Part shown: positions 3,390 through 59,824 of the stretch, piece by piece | Layout of the letters: each line of letters begins with the position of its first letter | How positions within the stretch are numbered: position 1 is the first letter of the stretch | Source: Parasporobacterium sp. | Lineage (GTDB): Bacteria; Bacillota; Clostridia; Lachnospirales; Lachnospiraceae | NCBI GenBank assembly: GCA_017510065.1 | Contig: JAFWOB010000184.1 | Coordinates: 4,671 to 68,670 of the forward strand | Direction of reading: 5' to 3' | DNA length: 64,000 bases | Position numbers and translations under genes: made by a program | Notes under the pieces: generated by a model | The model's database searches: none | What the model saw: the letters and a program-made list of their open reading frames with translations, nothing else | Told to the model about the DNA's origin: nothing

Positions 3390-3836
3390 TTATTCTTCTT
3401 CGACCTTCACCAGAAGGCTGGCCGTCACATCTTTATGCAGCTTCACTTTTACCTTGTGTTCTCCCAGGGCCTTGATCGGATCCGCAAGGACGATCTTTTT
3501 CTTATCCAGTTCCAGTCCCGTCTGATCCAATACCGCTGCAGCGATTTCCTTGGAAGCAATGGCTCCGAACAGTTTGCCGCCTTCCCCGACCTTTACCCGG
3601 ATCACGACCGTCTTATCCGCCAGCTGTGCGGCAAGCGCCTGGGCATTTTCCAGGTTTTCCCTTGCCACTTTGGCCTCATTCGCATTTTTCAGCTTCAGGT
3701 TGTTCAGGTTGTCCGGTGTCGCTTCCACGCCTTTCTTCTTGGGAATGATAAAATTCCTTGCATAACCATCGGAAACATCGCAGATGTCGCCTTTTTTTCC
3801 AAGTGACTTAACGTCTTCAAGCAGAATTACTTTCAT
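3390..3836 (-). CDS. rplI: 50S ribosomal protein L9
   Basis: 148 aa. [34 protein letters not shown] is the L9 N-terminal signature. Confidence 0.95.
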
Positions 3837-3862
3837 GATTGATTCCTCTTTTTATTTCTTTC

Positions 3863-5920
3863 TTATATCAGGTCTTTTTCCTCTATCATCTTCCGGATCG
3901 TAGCGCCGAGAGCCTTTCTGGCATCTTCTACCGTCGTATCTTCCAGCTGGCATCCCGCAATATTCAGATGTCCGCCTCCGCCCATCCGTTCCATGACAAG
4001 CTGAACATTCGTATCTCCGGTGGAACGGGCGCTGATATAGGTCTTTCCCGCTATGTTGGTCAGTACAAAGCTGGCTTTCACACCTTTGATATCAAGCAGT
4101 TCGTTGGCCACCTGGGCCGCGACCACAGTGGGATTAAAGACTCCCTCAGCAGGAGATACAGCCGCGACAAATCCCGGGATGATCTCTTCCGCAGTTTCCA
4201 TGGCAGCTGCCTTGATTCTGGCAGTATCAAGGGTATCCCGGAAGGAATTGTGGACCGCCTGGATATCGATCCCGATCTTACGCAGATATGCCGCCGCTTC
4301 AAAAGTCCTGACTCCGGTGTTTCTGGTAAAGGAGTCCGTATCGATGATGATACCGCCGTACAGTGCCTCTGCTTCCAGTTTGCGCAGGTTGATATTGTCG
4401 GTAATATACTGCAGGATCTCCGTTACCATCTCGCTGGCGGAACTTGCGGTAGGCTCTACATACGACAGGACCAGATTGTCGATCTTTTCGCCGCTCTGCA
4501 GATGATGGTCGATCAGGACAACCGACGAGGTATTCTGTACCAGATCAGGACATTCAAAGAGCTCCGGACGGTTCACATCCACGATCACCAGGGCTGTATC
4601 CTGGGTCACCAAATCTTCTGCCTGCTCCGGGGAAATGAATACTCCCTGGGAATACTCTTCGTCCTCCAGGAACTGTTCGATCACGCCCTGTACGGTATTA
4701 CTGCCGCGGTTTACAATAATATAGGCATGCTTGCCCAGAGACCTGGCGGCCTTATATATACCCACGGAAGCAGCAAACGCGTCGATATCTGCATTCTTAT
4801 GCCCCATGATCACAACCCGTTCCTTAGAGATCAGCACATCCCTGAGGGCGATTGCCTTCACACGGGCCTTGACGCGGGTGTTCTTTTCCACCTGCTTGGT
4901 TTTGCCGCCGTAGAAGTAGACTCTCTCTCCTTCTTTCACCACCACCTGGTCACCGCCTCTTCCCAGGGCAAGTTCCAGCGCGTTATTGGAAGCTGCCTCC
5001 ACCTGGGTATAGTCTTCTCCCACACCGATGCCGATGCTGATGGTGATAACATGCTCGCTGCCCATATCCAGTTTCTTGATCTGGTCCAGGATCTCGAATT
5101 TGTTTCTCTGAAGGCCGGTAAGGTATTTGCGCTTAAAGATCACATAATACCGGTCTCTTTCCAGTTTGCGGACAACTCCTCCCACGTTGCTGAAATAAGC
5201 GCCGATGGTCTTGTCGATCATCGCAGCCTGGACATTTTTCTGCACATCCAGGTCTCTGCTCATGACTTCATCGTAATTATCCACATAGATTGAACCGATC
5301 ACCAACTGCTCCGCCAGGATCCTGCGCATCATGTTCACGATCTCGGTCTCATCAAACAGATAGATCGCGCACAGGGTCATATCATGCTGCGGCATCAGGA
5401 CGATCTTTCCATCAATCAGGTCCTTGGTTACCTTGATATGCTTGATGCACAGCCGGTAATCCCGGTTGTCATAAAAAACGGAGATATTGTTGGAATCCGT
5501 ATCAAAATGAAGATCTCCTTCCGTCAGTTCGTGGAAGATCTGGGTAATATTGTTCAGTCCGGCTTTCTCGTCATAGATTCGACCGAAGATCCTATTGTAG
5601 GCAATGATCCTGCCATCCGGATCCGTCAGCACATAAGGCATGGGAAAGTCGCTGATCAGTTCTCCTTCCAGTCCTCCGTACTGTCTGGCAAACCGGACCA
5701 GTCCCCTTTCCAGGTTGCGGTTATTGATGGCAAAAAACACAGCCAGCGCCAGCACATAAAGGACAAAAGCAGCGGCTGCCACAAGCCCCGTAGGGATATA
5801 GATAAAGAACAGGGCGATCGTAAGTCCCAGAAGGATCAGTCCGAACACAGCGGGAAAGATGAGGTATCCCCGCATGACAACACCCATATTCAGCAGCAGT
5901 TCTTTTTTCTCTTTTTTCAT
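3863..5920 (-). CDS. gdpP: DHH/DHHA1 phosphodiesterase with membrane anchor, GdpP-type cyclic-di-AMP phosphodiesterase
   Basis: 685 aa. Two N-terminal hydrophobic helices and a PAS/degenerate-GGDEF-like middle. DHH motifs (GHKNADIDAFAAS, VLIDHH) and the DHHA1 GGGGH motif. Conserved position between rpsR and rplI. Confidence 0.85.
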   Translation of the reverse strand: MKKEKKELLLNMGVVMRGYLIFPAVFGLILLGLTIALFFIYIPTGLVAAAAFVLYVLALAVFFAINNRNLERGLVRFARQYGGLEGELISDFPMPYVLTDPDGRIIAYNRIFGRIYDEKAGLNNITQIFHELTEGDLHFDTDSNNISVFYDNRDYRLCIKHIKVTKDLIDGKIVLMPQHDMTLCAIYLFDETEIVNMMRRILAEQLVIGSIYVDNYDEVMSRDLDVQKNVQAAMIDKTIGAYFSNVGGVVRKLERDRYYVIFKRKYLTGLQRNKFEILDQIKKLDMGSEHVITISIGIGVGEDYTQVEAASNNALELALGRGGDQVVVKEGERVYFYGGKTKQVEKNTRVKARVKAIALRDVLISKERVVIMGHKNADIDAFAASVGIYKAARSLGKHAYIIVNRGSNTVQGVIEQFLEDEEYSQGVFISPEQAEDLVTQDTALVIVDVNRPELFECPDLVQNTSSVVLIDHHLQSGEKIDNLVLSYVEPTASSASEMVTEILQYITDNINLRKLEAEALYGGIIIDTDSFTRNTGVRTFEAAAYLRKIGIDIQAVHNSFRDTLDTARIKAAAMETAEEIIPGFVAAVSPAEGVFNPTVVAAQVANELLDIKGVKASFVLTNIAGKTYISARSTGDTNVQLVMERMGGGGHLNIAGCQLEDTTVEDARKALGATIRKMIEEKDLI

Positions 5921-27031: not shown

Positions 27032-27829
27032 TTACTTTAAATGCAGCCGGATAAGACTCCTGACACAGTCCGGCTCCAGCGGATACCCTTCCGCTTCAAA
27101 CGTCTGCAGCAGGTTGACTCCCGGAACGATCCCGGCGCTTCTCATCTGATCCAGCTTCCACAGATAATGTCTGTAATAATCCTCCTTAAGCATCCGTCCG
27201 TTATGTTCCAGATACCATTCTCTATAGTCTCTGAGCGAAAACAGATGGAAATCCGGATAGATGATCTCCCCTCCCGGCAGATAAACAGGGTCTTCATAGC
27301 GAAATGGTATTTCCTCGGAAAGCAGCATATTTGCGATCATCTGCTCGGACTTTGACCTGACATAAAATCCCCCGTCTGTGATAAAGATCAAGTGCTCCGG
27401 ATGAGACAGATTTTTCGGATATTCCGCATTTGCCCATTGATAGTACCGATTCCTTTTGTCAACCAATACCTCAGGCAGAAGCTGCCGTAATCCGGGGTGC
27501 CGTTCCAGGTACGCCGCAACCTCCGAGCTGTCCCTGTGCCATCTCAGATATTCTTCGGCAGCTTTTAGTTCCCTTCTCAGATCCTTCAGCATTTTCTTAT
27601 AATAATCCCTTTTCGCCAGCTGCATAAGAAGCGGGCTCTGTCTGTTCAGATAGTATTCCTCTTTCTCTCCCAAACTGTTTCCGGTTCTTTTCATGCTATA
27701 GCGATAGACATCGCTCTGCCGCCTACAGATCAGCCTGTCCTGTGGTGCTTCATCGACAAACCGGACAATCCGGTCGATCTTATCTTGTATTTCAGCTTTT
27801 TGTTTCATCATATAGTCAGTTGTGATCAT
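27032..27829 (-). CDS. hypothetical protein: N-terminal coiled-coil plus a C-terminal PD-(D/E)xK / TnsA-N-like nuclease-fold domain
   Basis: 265 aa. SD AAGGAGA. The C-terminal pattern VRSKSEQMIANML..IPFRYEDP..IYPDFHLF..WYLEHNG resembles S-x-x-E ... PDF ... E-x-(K) nuclease cores. The family was not identified. Confidence 0.6.
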   Translation of the reverse strand: MITTDYMMKQKAEIQDKIDRIVRFVDEAPQDRLICRRQSDVYRYSMKRTGNSLGEKEEYYLNRQSPLLMQLAKRDYYKKMLKDLRRELKAAEEYLRWHRDSSEVAAYLERHPGLRQLLPEVLVDKRNRYYQWANAEYPKNLSHPEHLIFITDGGFYVRSKSEQMIANMLLSEEIPFRYEDPVYLPGGEIIYPDFHLFSLRDYREWYLEHNGRMLKEDYYRHYLWKLDQMRSAGIVPGVNLLQTFEAEGYPLEPDCVRSLIRLHLK

Positions 27830-27894: not shown

Positions 27895-28089
27895 AAGAAT
27901 AGTCATTTTGAAAAAACTATTCGCAAATTGAATGTTGAAGCAAAAAAAGAATACTTTTAAGTTCCTATTTATCCGTTTTTCCTGCAAATATCAAAAACAA
28001 GAATAGTGCACTATTCTTATTTGCCCGGAATCAATGAATCGCGAAACAAAACTATTCTTAAAACAGCGGATAAATAAAAAAACGGATAG
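27895..28089. repeat. phased array of AAGAATAGT/ACTATTCTT palindromic sites in the AT-rich region upstream of 27829
   Basis: AAGAATAGT at 27895, AAGAATACT at 27947, the perfect 20-bp palindrome AAGAATAGTGCACTATTCTT at 27999-28018, and ACTATTCTT at 28051. Starts are spaced exactly 52 bp. Flanking inverted pair TATTTATCCG (27966-75) / CGGATAAATA (28067-76). Confidence 0.7.
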
Positions 28090-36814: not shown

Positions 36815-37016
36815 TGCAACGATTTGCCGGGTATGCGTGATTTTGTAAGACCCCCTTGCAACGATTTGCCGGGTATGCGTGATTTTTATGCCAAAACTGG
36901 CCGAAAAATCATTCATACCCGGCATTTTGTTGCATTTTTCCGCTGAGAATCGTTCATAGCCGTCAAATCGTTGCAGCGCATTTTGGAAAATCATTCATAC
37001 CCGGCAAATCGTTGCA
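36815..37016. repeat. clustered 30-nt repeat family, locus 1 (2 direct + 3 inverted copies)
   Basis: TGCAACGATTTGCCGGGTATGCGTGATTTT occurs at 36815-44 and identically at 36857-86. Inverted copies lie at 36905-34, 36946-75 and 36987-37016 (AAAATCATTCATACCCGGCAAATCGTTGCA). Spacing is 41-48 nt. Confidence 0.85.
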
Positions 37017-41002: not shown

Positions 41003-41351
41003 CTGTTCTTGTTTGTTCTCATTTTGGTCATTTGTCGGTTCTGAGAACACCAGCTGTTCTCAGAACACTCTTTTTCGAATATAGAGAATACAAAGTATTC
41101 TTGTAGAACCATTTTTCTATATATGAGAACTGGCAGACTATTCTCAAATCTCTTGTTTGCTCCAAAAAAGAATAAAAAGTGTACTCAAACAGGCATATCT
41201 TTGGAATAAAGAACACTTGGGCAGTTCTTAAAAAACAGAATGGCCTAAAAAAAGAACACTTGATATTCTCAACATCTAAAAACAGCCAAATAAAGAACAT
41301 CTGGCGTTCTCAATAAATGAAAATAGCTGAAAGAAGAACACCTATGGTTCC
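41003..41351. repeat. array of AGAACA-N-TGTTCT-type palindromes / ~42-bp degenerate tandem units in an AT-rich gap
   Basis: GTTCTGAGAACAC (41038-50) and GTTCTCAGAACAC (41056-68). AGAATACAAAGTATTCT (41085-101). GAGAAC..ATTCTC (41125-45). Then AAGAACAC-N6-AGTTCTT (41209-29), AAGAACAC-N5-ATTCTC (41252-70), AAGAACAT-N5-GTTCTC (41293-311) and AAGAACAC-N5-GTTCC (41334-51), spaced 43/41/41 bp. Confidence 0.75.
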
Positions 41352-54961: not shown

Positions 54962-55900
54962 TTAAACTGCCACCAGGATATGCAGGTTGCGGACCGTGGC
55001 ATCTGCGATGGAATCATTGACGGAGTAAGCATGTTTTTCCAGATCTCCGCAGATCGCTTTTGTAAGGTTCTGCTCCATCAGTTCATCGATCACATCGGCT
55101 GCGATCCCTTCGATCACATTGTATTTTTCTTCTGCCGCTTCCTCCCGGTTATCGGACGTGATCAGATATTCTAAAAGTTCCGCCTCGATGGAGAGGATGT
55201 CCAGTTCGCGCATGGCCCGGAAACTCCATTTATAATACGGCTGGTATTTTTTATTAAGAAGAAACACTGCCGCCATCGTGCTTTTCACAAATTCAAAGAC
55301 CGCCAGCTGGGCGGCGCCGTACTCCCCGTGGGCAATGGTACGGCGGTAGTTGTACTGTCCGGCCTGGGCCATCAAAAGCAAATGTCCCGCCAGCTTCTTG
55401 CGGCGGATGTCCTCCGGATAATAAGCCAGTCCCTTCCGGATCTTTGTGACTTCACCGTAATTGTCAAAATACAGCTCTCCGTTCACCGCTTCCGCCAGGG
55501 ACTGCTCCGGCAGGGACAGCCAGTCATTTACGGACAGGATGCCGCTTTCGCTTCCGGTTTTCTCTGCAAAGAATTCCGCTGTCCGTATCACGCCGTGCCG
55601 GGCTCCGCCTACCGGCTGCATCAGGGATCTTTTATAACCCATGAATTCTTTCGGAAGCTTTGCGTATGCGCGCTCCAGTAAAAAAGCACTCTTTCGGTCC
55701 ACGATCTCTTCGCCCGGCAGGAAAATGCAAAATCCCGGCTCCAGATCATGATCTGCCGAGATCTCATCGTCATAGCCGAAACATTCGGACCCGCTTCCGG
55801 TCAGTCCTGCCGCCAGATAAGGAAGCAGTTCCGGAAATCCTTCTAACATCTCTTTGCCGTATTCTTCATAAAATGCTTTTGACAGTTCCAGTCCTTTCAT
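54962..55900 (-). CDS. DUF4037-type (nucleotidyltransferase-fold-like) protein
   Basis: 312 aa. N-terminal LTGSGSECFGYDDEISADHD pattern. Overlaps the upstream TPR gene by 4 nt and lies 12 nt before nrdG. Confidence 0.65.
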   Translation of the reverse strand: MKGLELSKAFYEEYGKEMLEGFPELLPYLAAGLTGSGSECFGYDDEISADHDLEPGFCIFLPGEEIVDRKSAFLLERAYAKLPKEFMGYKRSLMQPVGGARHGVIRTAEFFAEKTGSESGILSVNDWLSLPEQSLAEAVNGELYFDNYGEVTKIRKGLAYYPEDIRRKKLAGHLLLMAQAGQYNYRRTIAHGEYGAAQLAVFEFVKSTMAAVFLLNKKYQPYYKWSFRAMRELDILSIEAELLEYLITSDNREEAAEEKYNVIEGIAADVIDELMEQNLTKAICGDLEKHAYSVNDSIADATVRNLHILVAV

Positions 55901-56763
55901 ACTTCTGCATCTCCGTCAGCATCATTTCGCCGGTAGATTTCTTCCGCCCGGCGGTTCAGCTCTTCTGCCTGCATGAAATACCCGTACCAGGAAAATGCCG
56001 GGGCACACTTCTCACACACGAAGGCGTAGTACCCGTCCCTGGGGGCACTGGTGGTATCCAGCAGTTCATAAGCTTTGTCCATGAAGGAATTGATCTGTTC
56101 CTCCGCTTCCTCCGGCCCCTTCTCATCTTCCGCCGCATTGGCCATATTGATGTAGGTGATCGCCTGCTCCAGTTCTCCGCCGGGTACTTTCTCCATGACG
56201 GACAGCGCTTTCTGATACAGTTCTCCTGCCCGTTCAAACTGCTTCAGGGACACACAGACGAGAGCCATATTGTTGTATAGGCCTCCCAGAAGCTGCGGAT
56301 CCGTACGGGAACTGGATTCGTAGACATCCTTCGCCTTTTCGAACAGCACGAGAGACTGTTCATTTTCTCCGAAGGCATTGTAAGCGGTGGCCACATTGGT
56401 ATAAGTCGTGCCGGCGCTGATGGTTCCTTCAAAATCCATTTCCTTCAGAAGATCCAGGGCTGCCCGGGCCTGTTCAAATGCCGCCTCTTTCTCGGCGGTT
56501 TTCCGATAATGCCCCACCAGCTCATTGCGGATCATCAGCTCGCCCCGCTGATCTCTGCCAAGTCTGGCTTCCTCCAGCCAGTAAAGAAGATGCCTCTGCG
56601 CTCCGGCGTAGTCCCTGCGGCTCATATACTCATCCATTTTCTCAATGATACGGCGCTGCGGAACGCTTTTTGCTGCAGGCTCCGCACCATAAGGCTCGTC
56701 GCAGAGCACACATCTGGGTTCTATATAATCTTCCGCTTTCAGGATGTTGGAATTCTCTGTCAT
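55897..56763 (-). CDS. tetratricopeptide-repeat protein
   Basis: Start moved to ATG 56763 (AAAGGAGA upstream; MTENSNILKAEDY). TPR-like helical repeats. The longer track ORF start lies inside the repeat cluster. Confidence 0.7.
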   Translation of the reverse strand: MTENSNILKAEDYIEPRCVLCDEPYGAEPAAKSVPQRRIIEKMDEYMSRRDYAGAQRHLLYWLEEARLGRDQRGELMIRNELVGHYRKTAEKEAAFEQARAALDLLKEMDFEGTISAGTTYTNVATAYNAFGENEQSLVLFEKAKDVYESSSRTDPQLLGGLYNNMALVCVSLKQFERAGELYQKALSVMEKVPGGELEQAITYINMANAAEDEKGPEEAEEQINSFMDKAYELLDTTSAPRDGYYAFVCEKCAPAFSWYGYFMQAEELNRRAEEIYRRNDADGDAEV

Positions 56764-56861
56764 GCGGATGGGTCTCCTTTCCTTTTTAAAGGGTTCCTTT
56801 TTTCGCTGCCTTCTATTGTACATGAAGTGCGTTCTGTTTTCCACTGGCATGTCGGAAATGG

Positions 56862-57104
56862 CTACATCAAATGCGACGCTATGCATGATTTTCGCCGGTC
56901 TTCTGTAACGTTTGTGACGCTATGCATGATTTTTTGCACTGTTTTCGATGGTATGCATGATTTCAGCCCCAAAAATCGGCGTAAATTGGCGTAAATCCAT
57001 GCATACCGTTCATTTCGCTGCAGCGGATTTTGGAAAATCGTGCATAGCGTTCATTTTGTTACAGCAAAGCCTTAAAAATCATGCATAGCCTCGTTTTTGT
57101 TACA
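56862..57104. repeat. clustered ~30-nt repeat family, locus 2 (3 direct + 3 inverted copies)
   Basis: Direct copies end in GACGCTATGCATGATTTT (56875-92), GTAACGTTTGTGACGCTATGCATGATTTT (56905-33) and ..GATGGTATGCATGATTT (56936-63). Inverted copies lie at 56993-57023, 57034-64 and 57075-104 (AAAATCATGCATAGCCTCGTTTTTGTTACA). They are homologous to the locus-1 units. Confidence 0.85.
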
Positions 57105-57110
57105 CCGTCC

Positions 57111-57166
57111 AAAAAAGGCAAATGCTTTTGCTGCAGCAAAGCCGCCGGATGAACCGGCGGCCTTGC
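57111..57166 (-). terminator. terminator after the 873-aa secreted protein gene
   Basis: Minus strand: GCAAGGCCGCCGG-uucau-CCGGCGGCUUUGC, then a small hairpin GCAAA/UUUGC, then CUUUUUU. Confidence 0.7.
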
Positions 57167-57202
57167 TTCTTCCTTCTATATAATGTTCTGCACGTCTATA
57201 GA

Positions 57203-59824
57203 TCACTGAGCCAGTGCTTCCTCCAACAGCGTCTGGAACTCGCCCAGATCAGGAACCATTTCATAGATGCTGAATCCGCCTTCTTTGTCAACCAGGTCTT
57301 TGATCACAGGCTGACCGTCTACCATTTCGTAGAACACATAAACGGTGATATCGCCTGCCATTTCACTGTAGGTATCTACTTCCACCACATCACCTTCCGG
57401 GAGTTCTTCCAGCGCAACGGGGCCTTCAGCCGGCTCTGCGGGAGCGCCTGCCGGTGCTTCTCCTTCCGGAGACTCTCCTTCAGGAGACTCTGCCGGAGCC
57501 TGCGCAGCTTCCGCTGCCGGATCGACCTGGATCAGACCGTTATCAAGGATCGTCACCTGACCGTTTACAACAGAAGTATCATCCACGTTCAGGACAGATA
57601 CATAAGAAGTCTCGGTGACATTCCAGACAGCGCCGTTCTTCAGAGTGACGATCATACCGTTGTTAACAGTTTCTGACGGATAGCAGGTTACGCGGCCAAG
57701 ATTCTCGCGGCATCCCAGGATACGGCCATCTTCTGTTTCGATCAGATCATCGCCGTACGGAAGAGATCTTTCAATGCCGTCAACCGCATGCTCGCACCAG
57801 CCGGAGGAAATGATACCGGTCAGTTCGGAATTGTCCAGTGTCAGGATCAGGTTCTTGGAAGTATACTGATGGCAGTTGAAAATGTCGCCTTCCAGAGCGG
57901 TATCGCCTATGCAGTCCTCAAAGTAAGCTTCGACTGCTGCATTGTACTGATAGCTGGAGTCTTCCGGCCACATCATCGTATTGGCCTTGCCCCAGAAATT
58001 CGTTTCCGTTACATCAAAGTTTTCATCCTTGCCGGCGATGCTGTCGTCGAAATCAACTTCCGTACCGCCCAGGGCACCCGGGTCATCGGAATCAAATGCA
58101 AGGACCAGCACCGGTGCATTGACGTCGCAGTTGCGCACATACAGGTTGGAGCCGGTTGCGCTGGCTACCATCATGCCACCGGAGGAGCCGCCGTCATCGC
58201 CGCCGTCGTCCAGCATCTCCTGGACATATCCCTCGCCGGTTCCCTTATAGACAAACGCGATCTCATCCGCATTCAGGACGGAATCCGCGCACATGGTAAT
58301 ACCGCCTGCATTGGAATGGCACATGACGATGCTCTTGCGGGCATTGACTGTGGTTCCGTTGACATAAGCAGATGAAGCGTATTCATTGGCTTCTACATTG
58401 CCGTAGTCCGCATTGACGACACAGTTAGAGTAAACGTTGATATTCGCACCGATCGAATAGGATGAATACCCGGTGCGTCCCTGATCCATGTCAAGGATAT
58501 CCAGTTCACTGTTGACCAGAGTATTTTTGCCCGGGAAATAATACAGCGAATAGTCGTTTGTCTGCGGAAGCGCTTCCAGAGCCTCTGCACTGTCTACAGC
58601 AGCCAGTGTTGCCAGATACTCATCGGTAAGGCCGGTTGCGGCAACTGCAAATTCATTGAGTTCCATGATCTCGCCGTCCGCATTGGCATAGCCTTCGCCT
58701 TCCACGTAGGCTGCGGTCAGCTCTGCCAGGTCGTCTGCCCACGGATATTCCGTTCCGTCAACGGACAGGCAGGCCCAGCCGAAGGACTGGATCAGAGTGT
58801 TGTAATAATATACATCATAATAATCGCAGAACTGGCAGGTACGTACCACGCCGTGAAGTCCCAGCACCCATACTGCGCAGTCTTCTCCTTCAATATCACC
58901 GGTAGAGGTCAGCTTACTGTCAGATACATAGATCGTCGGATAATTGTTTCTGTCAGACAGACCGCCGTACAGAACGGTACGGGTCACGCCGTCGCCGGTG
59001 CCTTCAAAGTTGCGGACATGAAGAACCGATGCGCCGGTAGCTGCGATGGCGCAGCCGTCTCCGGTAAAGTCATTGCCGCCGGATGCATGGTTGCCGGTCT
59101 GCAGGGTATGGAATTTGGAATCCTCGATCGCATACTCTCCGCCGGTTACCGTCACAACGCTGATGTTCGGGGCATCTGCCGTAATATCGGCATTTTTCAT
59201 GCCGTCCTCTGTGATCTCACCGTTCACGCCGGACTCTACTACCACCAGATTGTCTGTGTTTCTGGTGACCAGAGATTTGTTATGGAAATACTCTCCCTGC
59301 TCATTATGGCTGTCGGTCAGCGGAACTACTTCAAATACCACTTTGCCTTCGTAGGTTCCCGGAGCCTGGGTCACAACCTGGCCGTCCACGGTCATGATCA
59401 CGCCATAGCCTTCTTCCGGAATATAAAGATTGTCTTCTTCCAGGGTCACGCCGTCTTCAAATGTTAATGTTTCGGTGATCACCTGACCTACCAGCGGTTC
59501 CGGTGCAGCAGCTTCCTCTGATCCGCCGGGTGCGGATTCTCCGCCTTCCGATCCTCCTGCTGATTCACCGGCCGGTGCTTCCCCTGCCGGAGACTCGCCT
59601 TCCGGAGATTCCCCTTGCGGAGACTCACCCGGAGCTTCCCCTGCGGGAGATTCTCCCGGTGCCGCCTCTTCGGCGATGGCTTCCGGTGCCGCCTCTTCCT
59701 GCCCGCCTGCGATCACGAACCCATAGGTCTGCTCCGCAGCCGGCTGGGCCAGTGCAGGAACTGCCATCATGACTGTGACTGCCACAGCCAGAAGGAGCGC
59801 CAGCATTTTCTTCATCCCCTTCAT
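57203..59824 (-). CDS. large secreted protein of unknown function with (G/A)ESP(E/A)GE repeat linkers near both termini
   Basis: 873 aa. SD AAGGAGGG. Signal peptide MKGMKKMLALLLAVAVTVMMAVPALA. Repeats APGESPAGEAPGESPQGESPEGESPAGEAP (about 59509-59692) and APAESPEGESPEGEAPAGAP (about 57419-57523). The central region is Gly/Asn/Asp/Thr-rich and possibly beta-helical. Confidence 0.75.
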   Translation of the reverse strand: MKGMKKMLALLLAVAVTVMMAVPALAQPAAEQTYGFVIAGGQEEAAPEAIAEEAAPGESPAGEAPGESPQGESPEGESPAGEAPAGESAGGSEGGESAPGGSEEAAAPEPLVGQVITETLTFEDGVTLEEDNLYIPEEGYGVIMTVDGQVVTQAPGTYEGKVVFEVVPLTDSHNEQGEYFHNKSLVTRNTDNLVVVESGVNGEITEDGMKNADITADAPNISVVTVTGGEYAIEDSKFHTLQTGNHASGGNDFTGDGCAIAATGASVLHVRNFEGTGDGVTRTVLYGGLSDRNNYPTIYVSDSKLTSTGDIEGEDCAVWVLGLHGVVRTCQFCDYYDVYYYNTLIQSFGWACLSVDGTEYPWADDLAELTAAYVEGEGYANADGEIMELNEFAVAATGLTDEYLATLAAVDSAEALEALPQTNDYSLYYFPGKNTLVNSELDILDMDQGRTGYSSYSIGANINVYSNCVVNADYGNVEANEYASSAYVNGTTVNARKSIVMCHSNAGGITMCADSVLNADEIAFVYKGTGEGYVQEMLDDGGDDGGSSGGMMVASATGSNLYVRNCDVNAPVLVLAFDSDDPGALGGTEVDFDDSIAGKDENFDVTETNFWGKANTMMWPEDSSYQYNAAVEAYFEDCIGDTALEGDIFNCHQYTSKNLILTLDNSELTGIISSGWCEHAVDGIERSLPYGDDLIETEDGRILGCRENLGRVTCYPSETVNNGMIVTLKNGAVWNVTETSYVSVLNVDDTSVVNGQVTILDNGLIQVDPAAEAAQAPAESPEGESPEGEAPAGAPAEPAEGPVALEELPEGDVVEVDTYSEMAGDITVYVFYEMVDGQPVIKDLVDKEGGFSIYEMVPDLGEFQTLLEEALAQ

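Follow-up and report, generated by a model that had tools for sequence, protein, structure and literature searches.

A dispersed six-unit palindromic repeat in Parasporobacterium with a candidate Vsr-fold nuclease partner

We analysed a 64,000-nucleotide stretch of Parasporobacterium sp. (hereafter the window; C159:4671-68670 in our contig numbering), which belongs to a 3.47-Mb, 242-contig metagenome-assembled genome (MAG) of a gut bacterium (G000) that is 90% complete. At positions 56863-57104 of the window lies a cluster of ~30-nt units, three direct and then three inverted, each following the pattern CTGYAAC-N10-GYTATGCATGATTTT, whose two conserved parts we call box 1 and box 2. This element is most likely a lineage-specific, intergenic, palindromic six-unit repeat of ~234 bp. 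Its copies elsewhere in the genome, and a gene that two of them enclose, indicate that the window cluster is probably a solo copy of a repeat resembling the REPIN/RAYT systems, with a Vsr-fold nuclease as its partner.

The repeat cluster at positions 56863-57104

Using a 15-nt core (GCTATGCATGATTTT, with up to three mismatches), we located six sites in the cluster, starting on the + strand at 56878, 56919 and 56950 and on the - strand at 56993, 57034 and 57075. Positions of whole units come from a hidden Markov model (HMM) of the unit (window coordinates are C159 coordinates minus 4670), and the parts of the element are as follows:

56863-56892, + strand: unit A1, the outermost direct unit, with a degenerate box 1 (CTACATC) and GCTATGCATGATTTT at box 2 (nhmmer match C159:61533-61562 and sequence)
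56903-56933, + strand: unit A2, CTGTAAC-GTTTGTGAC-GCTATGCATGATTTT, 41 bp past A1 (unit HMM, core scan and sequence)
56935-56964, + strand: unit A3, the inner, short-spaced direct unit (TTGCAC...GGTATGCATGATTTC), 31 bp past A2 (core scan and unit HMM)
56965-56992, no strand: centre, with a CCCC..GGGG mini-hairpin remnant and a copy-specific 10-bp tandem duplication (sequence and family alignment)
56993-57023, - strand: unit B3, the inner inverted unit (core scan and unit HMM)
57034-57064, - strand: unit B2, 41 bp from B3 (core scan and unit HMM)
57075-57105, - strand: unit B1, the outermost inverted unit, ending in the element terminus ...GTTACA(C) (core scan and unit HMM)

Both cores and whole units thus reproduce the three direct and three inverted copies described in the initial annotation of this DNA. 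Unit spacing is 41/31/43/41/41 bp, with a small hairpin at the centre, and the short A2-A3 interval defines the orientation of the element. A small central tandem, also reported in that annotation, proved to be a 10-bp duplication at 56978-56997 (GGCGTAAATT / GGCGTAAATC, that is, GGCGTAAAT(T/C) twice). It is responsible for an inner-core gap of 29 nt and adds one helical turn. Since 44 of the 50 clusters of the genome with units in both orientations, truncated forms included, have a gap of 17-21 nt, most often 19, we regard the duplication as peculiar to the window copy. Past the GTTACA(C) terminus, conservation in the family alignment drops sharply. Folded as a single strand, the element has a predicted energy of -52.5 kcal/mol (z = -6.5), and an Rfam scan of positions 55500-58500 returned nothing relevant.

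A dispersed family in Parasporobacterium

When applied to the whole genome, the HMM built from the 11 units of the window gave 263 unit matches, grouped into about 54 clusters. These copy numbers are lower bounds, as the MAG is incomplete and the repeat breaks assembly: contigs start or end inside an element at C14:27-182, C116:4647-4760, C219:6-116 and C220:6-116, as well as in C75 and C168, and C219 and C220 begin with an identical 111 bp. For annotation, the element explains spurious extensions of open reading frames (ORFs) and many contig breaks in these MAGs.

Clusters always run from + units to - units. The most frequent form, +++---, occurs at 20 loci and has a modal length of 234 bp; there are also shorter forms (+-, ++-, ++--- and others) and a longer one (++++---). 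Start-to-start spacing in the canonical form is 41, 31 | 41, 41, so that the unequal arms give the element an orientation, and both orientations occur. Because the inner-core gap is constant even in truncated clusters, the central inverted pair appears to be the part that is retained. Box centres are separated by 41-42, 31, 33, 41 and 41 bp, all close to whole helical turns, which places every box on the same face of the helix. An oriented alignment of 17 full copies revealed conservation of box 1 (CTGYAAC), box 2 (GYTATGCATGATTTT) and parts of the long-arm spacers, falling to background directly outside CTGCA...TGCAG, so the element has sharp edges; no target-site duplication was visible in these 17 copies. 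Compared in pairs, full copies are 72% identical at the median and 86% at most, and no two are closer than the window copy and C74_1542. The units are not self-complementary and carry no GTAG/CGTC tag; pairing is possible only between opposite arms, whose variable parts are not complementary and which hold different, position-specific unit types.

All copies are intergenic. According to gene context from a crude ORF picker, convergent gaps contain 21 of 47 copies, where gaps of 150 bp or more would predict 19% (p = 4e-5), 23 of 47 lie between tandem genes and only 3 of 47 occupy divergent gaps, where 26% would be predicted (p = 5e-4). Copies therefore prefer the 3' ends of genes, while their orientation relative to gene direction is random (9 same, 7 opposite).

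The window itself holds a second copy, which we call locus 1 (the cluster above being locus 2):

36815-37016, no strand: locus 1, a ++--- copy of a sister subfamily with units TGCAACGATTTGCCGGGTATGCGTGATTTT and GGTATGAATGATTTT (core scan and unit HMM)

Locus 1 lies between convergent genes, one 5'-nucleotidase-like and one MscS-like, and has five core-related sites within 36830-37001. Together the two loci account for the 11 core matches in the 64-kb window, compared with 2.3 expected and with none of 100 shuffles reaching 11. This similarity, along with the further copies across the genome, upholds the earlier proposal that both loci belong to one dispersed family, now comprising ~54 direct-then-inverted clusters. 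Locus 1 is nonetheless distinct from locus 2, as it represents a separate subfamily (GCCGGGTATGCGTGATTTT / GGTATGAATGATTTT). Units of this subfamily recur in the related genome G341, introduced below (locus L044, site 2), and C139_6656 and C116/C14 probably belong to it as well, judging by score and layout.

A further proposal, that units within a locus had been homogenised by concerted evolution, did not hold. Over the 18 non-core nucleotides of 21 full-length copies, identity was 49% within the same element, 56% between the same positions of different elements and 48% between other positions elsewhere, and the window copy was 55% identical within itself compared with 72% to the same positions of C74_1542. 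Units are therefore nearer to same-position units at other loci than to their own neighbours, and positional homology between loci exceeds similarity within them. Identical neighbouring units in the locus 1 subfamily can be traced to tandem duplication of 41-42 bp rather than to locus-wide homogenisation: at L044 site 2 of G341, three direct units are exact 41-bp tandem duplicates.

The family is narrowly distributed. Searches by BLAST and with a two-core pattern gave no match among 24 congeners, 300 genera of the same family, 16 further families of the order or viral contigs. The family does occur in a goat gut MAG, Parasporobacterium sp. RGIG2565 (G341; ~90% nucleotide identity), and in contigs of the 'R26 coassemble' metagenome (88-95% identity), and most copies occupy orthologous positions across G000, G341 and R26. 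G341 (a 1.6-Mb MAG) lacks an orthologous locus for the window copy, the search there giving only element-to-element matches; homology of the window copy with C74 and R26 past the element boundary is visible by eye but not significant with blastn-short.

Presence/absence polymorphism, one of the checks put forward for the family in the initial annotation, was seen: two G341 copies face short, element-free intergenic DNA at C148:11381-11430 and C148:12700-12761. Unit number also differs at three orthologous loci (C130_60759, C74_1542 and C46_280). Together with a family size far beyond chance, this polymorphism in close relatives fits the view taken there that the layout points to a functional or mobile element. 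Separately, R26 contig L058:2674-4112 and C219:878-945 differ by a 1.4-kb indel, present in R26 and absent from G000, which contains one element and a small secreted-protein-like gene.

To compare rates of change along the element, we used 15 orthologous loci. Box 2 had diverged by 5.6%, box 1 by 9.4%, the variable decamer by 12.8% and the spacers by 14.6%, and the mostly coding flanks by 8.8%. Boxes changed two to three times more slowly than spacers (boxes versus the rest of the element, Fisher p = 3e-10), so either selection or conversion holds them in place.

A gene framed by arrays and its predicted nuclease domain

A single gene in the genome is enclosed by two arrays. This 334-aa ORF (C128:2461-3462, minus strand) is bracketed by ++++--- elements at 2155-2441 and 3647-3932, both in the same orientation, and the gene-between-elements arrangement is syntenic in G341. 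By tblastn, we found four paralogs with 33-37% identity to the C128 gene, each adjoining its own direct-then-inverted array with a unit sequence that differs from paralog to paralog:

C95: array on both sides of the gene, TGCAGnACATTTCAACTTTGGCAG
C144: array on one side, TGCAGAAAAAnTCCGnTTGTGTACG at a 30-bp period
C142: array on one side, a 37-nt pair containing GGTACACAAC
C36: array on one side, CAGCCTGTGAACGATT

The C144-type array is itself dispersed, at 19-24 loci (for example, C144:908-1148, C10:3406-3577 and C145:520-723), with a long A/T-rich centre and the same direct-then-inverted order. At one intergenic site the two related genomes carry different arrays: G000 has the C36 paralog with its own CTGTGAACGATT-type array (C36:13127-14512), whereas G341 (L037:1946-2210) has a plain canonical TATGCATGATTTT element and no gene, with a TTATGAACGAT remnant adjoining. 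The partner gene was free-standing between unrelated genes in every locus inspected, not within a group I intron or an intein.

Neither Pfam nor NCBIfam contains a match for the C128 protein itself, and it has no Y1 domain. In an alignment of 25 homologs (A1), the N-terminal ~110 residues are poorly conserved and 20 positions are invariant, including P116-E117 in the middle of the protein (SPELCF motif) and S192, S194, E197, D242, E253, Y254, H260 and D269 in the C-terminal part. Pfam matches among these 25 relatives are weak (MTES_1575 in 16 and DUF559 in 11, all at E ≥ 5.7e-5). The sole solved structure matched by the profile was the catalytic domain of the homing endonuclease I-Bth0305I (3r3p, E = 1.5e-6). 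An AlphaFold2 model of the partner protein (mean predicted local distance difference test score of 90, predicted template-modelling score of 0.89) led to the same structure, 3r3p being the top meaningful Foldseek match (probability 1.0, template-modelling score of 0.55 on the target, root-mean-square deviation of 2.8 over 68 columns). For the N-terminal two-thirds, neither Foldseek nor Pfam provided a relative.

In I-Bth0305I, active-site residues E170, D196, N208, H213 and D222 correspond to E25, D51, H64, H69 and D97 of Vsr (PMC3239194). From the HMMER alignment and residue spacing, they map to E197, D242, D255, H260 and D269 of the partner protein, of which E197, D242, H260 and D269 are invariant in the 25 sequences. 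Since all five positions map in this way, the active site looks intact. Model and profile together thus assign to the protein a predicted C-terminal nuclease domain of the Vsr/EDxHD-type PD-(D/E)XK class, preceded by a variable N-terminal two-thirds.

Homologs extend well beyond this genome. A profile search returned one to seven of them in 18 of 24 congeners and none in 16 other families of the order, and an exhaustive HMMER search yielded 2,780 representative clusters at E ≤ 1e-30, the majority of them full-length at ~320-340 aa. In at least five of 11 loci fetched from other genomes of the genus, the gene adjoined a clear, phased direct-then-inverted array; these arrays have periods of 41 or 52 bp and their sequences are unrelated. 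Another two loci had direct repeats only. The flanking array type was checked for dispersal in two congeners, with a positive result in both: in G002, type TTCYGGGTTCGTTTT gave 35 matches in ~8 loci (control, 1), and in G004, type TGGTCAT...TGGAAA gave 72 matches in ~11 loci (control, 0). The distant homologs P0015, P0017, P0018, P0019 and P0028 adjoin inverted-repeat pairs, and a TGTACA-containing box is common to the arrays of C142 and P0015, which at 50% identity are the closest pair of proteins compared. Full-text literature searches found no paper joining DUF559/MTES_1575 proteins with dispersed repeats.

Interpretation, alternatives and other features of the window

From the arrangement of genes and arrays, we infer that the CTGYAAC and GYTATGCATGATTTT boxes are putative DNA sites of the ~334-aa C128 enzyme, and that the variable N-terminal region of the protein would read them. 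An oligomer of the nuclease could assemble on one face of the DNA over the phased boxes, with the central inverted pair as its core site, and nicking or cutting at the array might then drive or maintain both the spread of solo copies and the conservation of the boxes. Possible routes include break-induced copying, conversion between copies, or excision and reinsertion of hairpin-prone DNA.

The nearest known counterparts are the REP, BIME and REPIN sequences and their RAYT partner (TnpA_REP, HUH-Y1)(Bertels & Rainey 2011, PMC3116915; Messing et al. 2012, PMC3479197; Bertels et al. 2017, PMC5581495). As in those systems, the repeats here are extragenic and hairpin-prone, number in the tens, favour gene 3' ends and are lineage-restricted, with a recognition sequence that persists over the long term; the cognate gene is vertically inherited and flanked by the same repeat, and each paralog is paired with its own repeat family. 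Unlike REP sequences, which are 20-40-nt stem-loops with a GTAG/CGTC tag, the units are ~30 nt long, bipartite and not self-palindromic, and they form helically phased arrays of two to four direct and one to three inverted units with 30-, 41- or 52-bp periods. The partner also differs, being a predicted Vsr/EDxHD-type PD-(D/E)XK nuclease where RAYT is a Y1 HUH transposase. As both the self-palindromic tagged unit and the Y1 transposase partner are missing, the element is not a member of the REPIN/RAYT group. A RAYT partner was likewise rejected on gene context: there are five Y1_Tnp matches in the genome (C7, C72, C238, C156 and C199), none on a contig that carries an array. We also rejected an origin like that of solo long terminal repeats, as no gene or untranslated-region remnants adjoin the solo copies.

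On the protein side, the partner resembles I-Bth0305I in its C-terminal fold, its five active-site positions and its multidomain build with a separate DNA-reading region. I-Bth0305I is a homodimer with a ~60-bp footprint centred on a pseudopalindrome (Taylor et al. 2011, PMC3239194), which recalls the central inverted box pair of the element. In contrast to EDxHD homing endonucleases, however, the gene is free-standing, and its putative sites are dispersed multi-unit arrays rather than a single allelic target. As for the Vsr, DUF559 and MTES_1575 nucleases, Pfam matches in the family are weak (best E = 5.7e-5), and the N-terminal two-thirds lack a solved or Pfam relative.

Several points weigh against a nuclease that spreads the repeat. 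The chemistry of PD-(D/E)XK nucleases is DNA hydrolysis without joining; copying would therefore have to depend on host repair, and this step is speculative. The copies are old, without sign of recent bursts (median identity 72%, maximum 86%), and no gene remnants were found beside solo copies. Simple homing does not explain the exchange of arrays between C36 and G341. Neither a target-site duplication nor a clean empty site could be defined (G341 versus C148; R26 versus C56, C84 and C219), because the intergenic flanks are too diverged, or the sequences compared too incomplete, to fix exact junctions. The slow change of the boxes could reflect gene conversion between copies or a register bias in aligning repeats instead of selection at each locus. 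Finally, the link between protein and array is drawn from position and co-variation.

Among the alternatives, the one that survives best, though we consider it unlikely, is that the clusters are host-serving arrays bound by a domesticated Vsr-like or other host protein, with a nucleoid, boundary or titration function and no mobility. The helical phase of all boxes and their conservation at orthologous loci would suit such a role, as would the stability and synteny of most loci across three ~90%-identical genomes, and a protein that polymerises on constant-period repeats has been proposed (Subirana and Messeguer, PMC8161180). The very narrow clade and the different array type of each paralog are harder to reconcile with it. 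So are the presence/absence and unit-number polymorphism, and copies are placed neither regularly nor at regulatory sites but where they do least harm, at gene 3' ends. The invariant catalytic residues, moreover, argue for cutting beyond binding.

The repeats of constant size and variable sequence described in that work in Firmicutes (52 and 20-21 nt, head-to-tail; Subirana & Messeguer 2021, PMC8161180) share with our arrays whole-turn periods, several families of unrelated sequence per genome, an intergenic location and, as proposed there, a protein partner. Unlike them, the arrays here are mirror-symmetric with a 41/31-bp period, and a candidate partner gene has been identified.

Slightly less probable is an ordinary miniature inverted-repeat transposable element (MITE) with subterminal transposase sites, moved in trans by a DDE transposase missing from the MAG, the Vsr-like gene being a mere neighbour. 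The element shares several features with MITEs and with the ends of Mu, Tn7 and IS21: it is small and non-coding, its inverted arms end in TG...CA, and about three protein-site-like units per arm are unevenly spaced, as at the Mu and Tn7 ends. Copies also come and go between relatives, and a transposase could have been lost from an assembly of 242 contigs that is 90% complete and has several copies at contig ends. Yet no pair of + and - arrays encloses a transposase, either in G000, itself an incomplete MAG, or in the loci fetched from G341 and R26, and the sole enclosed gene is nuclease-like. There is no visible target-site duplication, no autonomous DDE partner was found and no copies are young or near-identical. 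Passive copies should decay evenly, whereas the boxes are conserved in place at orthologous loci. Chance neighbourhood is very unlikely as well, given five paralogs with different cognate arrays and the same pattern in G002 and G004.

We therefore retain the nuclease-partnered repeat as the preferred explanation. A broader version of it, which we advance only tentatively, is that the system represents an undescribed class of repeat and enzyme, in which each protein of a fast-diverging ~330-aa family would read its own helically phased, mirror-symmetric array. On this tentative account, arrays bracket the gene and are seeded in the chromosome, and a nuclease, not an HUH transposase, would propagate or maintain them; it could then supply the missing protein partner of the constant-period, variable-sequence repeats of Firmicutes and Actinobacteria. 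Many bacteria carry dispersed palindromic repeats, whose partners and means of spreading, REP and RAYT apart, are mostly unknown. The locus yields a concrete, testable candidate, namely an unannotated nuclease family with a gene that its own repeat brackets, and several congeneric species show the same pattern. Should the protein read and cut the boxes, this would be a second, mechanistically different symbiosis of repeat and enzyme, would give a function to thousands of hypothetical proteins, and would provide natural DNA-recognition modules for long sites together with their matched targets.

Two further alternatives turn on the surroundings of the window copy, which lies, as the initial annotation had it, between the terminator of an 873-aa gene and the start of a TPR-DUF4037-nrdG gene series:

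57203-59824, - strand: 873-aa gene (ORF; no Pfam match at E ≤ 0.01)
57141-57161, - strand (the terminator scan called +): G+C-rich, terminator-like hairpin downstream of the stop of the 873-aa gene and outside the element (inverted repeat I8)
56815-56843, - strand: promoter-like site TGGAAA-17-TACAAT for the TPR gene, outside the element (promoter scan)

On the other side of the element, the TPR, DUF4037 and radical-SAM activase genes are encoded on the minus strand. That the cluster creates a spurious N-terminal extension of the TPR reading frame was also correct: ORF 55897-56886 runs into the element, and the true start is likely the ATG at 56763, which has GGAGA ahead of it.

An RNA-level element, in which a long interrupted hairpin is transcribed and serves as a terminator, an mRNA stabiliser or a source of small RNA in the manner of REP and BIME sequences, is very unlikely. 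The strong predicted single-strand fold (-52.5 kcal/mol, z = -6.5) and the gene 3'-end bias speak for it; however, the variable parts of opposite arms are not complementary, orientation is random with respect to transcription (9 versus 7) and Rfam gave no match. In the window, the 873-aa gene is followed by a terminator hairpin of its own, which lies between its stop and the element and rules the latter out as that gene's terminator. Nor would an RNA role explain paralog-specific arrays around nuclease genes.

An operator array through which a known regulator, NrdR (for the nrdG-like gene) or CodY (AATTTTCTGAAAAAT-like spacers), controls the TPR operon can be dismissed as highly improbable: the cluster does lie upstream of the TPR/DUF4037/radical-SAM operon and CodY-box-like palindromes (up to two mismatches) are enriched in elements, which make up 0.3% of the DNA and contain 6 of the 28 in the genome, but the element occurs at ~54 unrelated loci, mostly gene 3' ends, the promoter-like site is outside it, the NrdR box is unlike its core and no CodY homolog was found in the genome. 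NrdR or any other operon-specific operator is thus contradicted by the genome-wide distribution, and a CodY operator, despite the CodY-box-like spacers, by the lack of a CodY gene. The long-arm spacers (for example, 57024-57040 and 57065-57081 of the window) combine with the start of box 2 (ATTTTCTGAAAAATC) into A/T-run palindromes that resemble CodY boxes; with no CodY gene found, they more likely belong to the putative site of the partner protein.

The suggestion that the cluster acts as a promoter, insulator or RNA stabiliser of the TPR operon found no support, as the promoter-like site is outside the element and element orientation is random. Most likely, the window copy has no dedicated role for the adjoining TPR/nrdG-like operon.

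Two other phased arrays occur in the window. At 41003-41351, an A/T-rich gap after convergent genes holds AAGAACAC..GTTCT dyads with a ~42-bp period and a different motif. At 27895-28089, a 52-bp-phased AAGAATAGT array adjoins an orphan gene for a 265-aa PD-(D/E)xK-like protein (27032-27829). Profile comparison did not relate this protein to the partner family (hhalign probability 0.2%), and the array and orphan gene may form an analogous system with a different nuclease.

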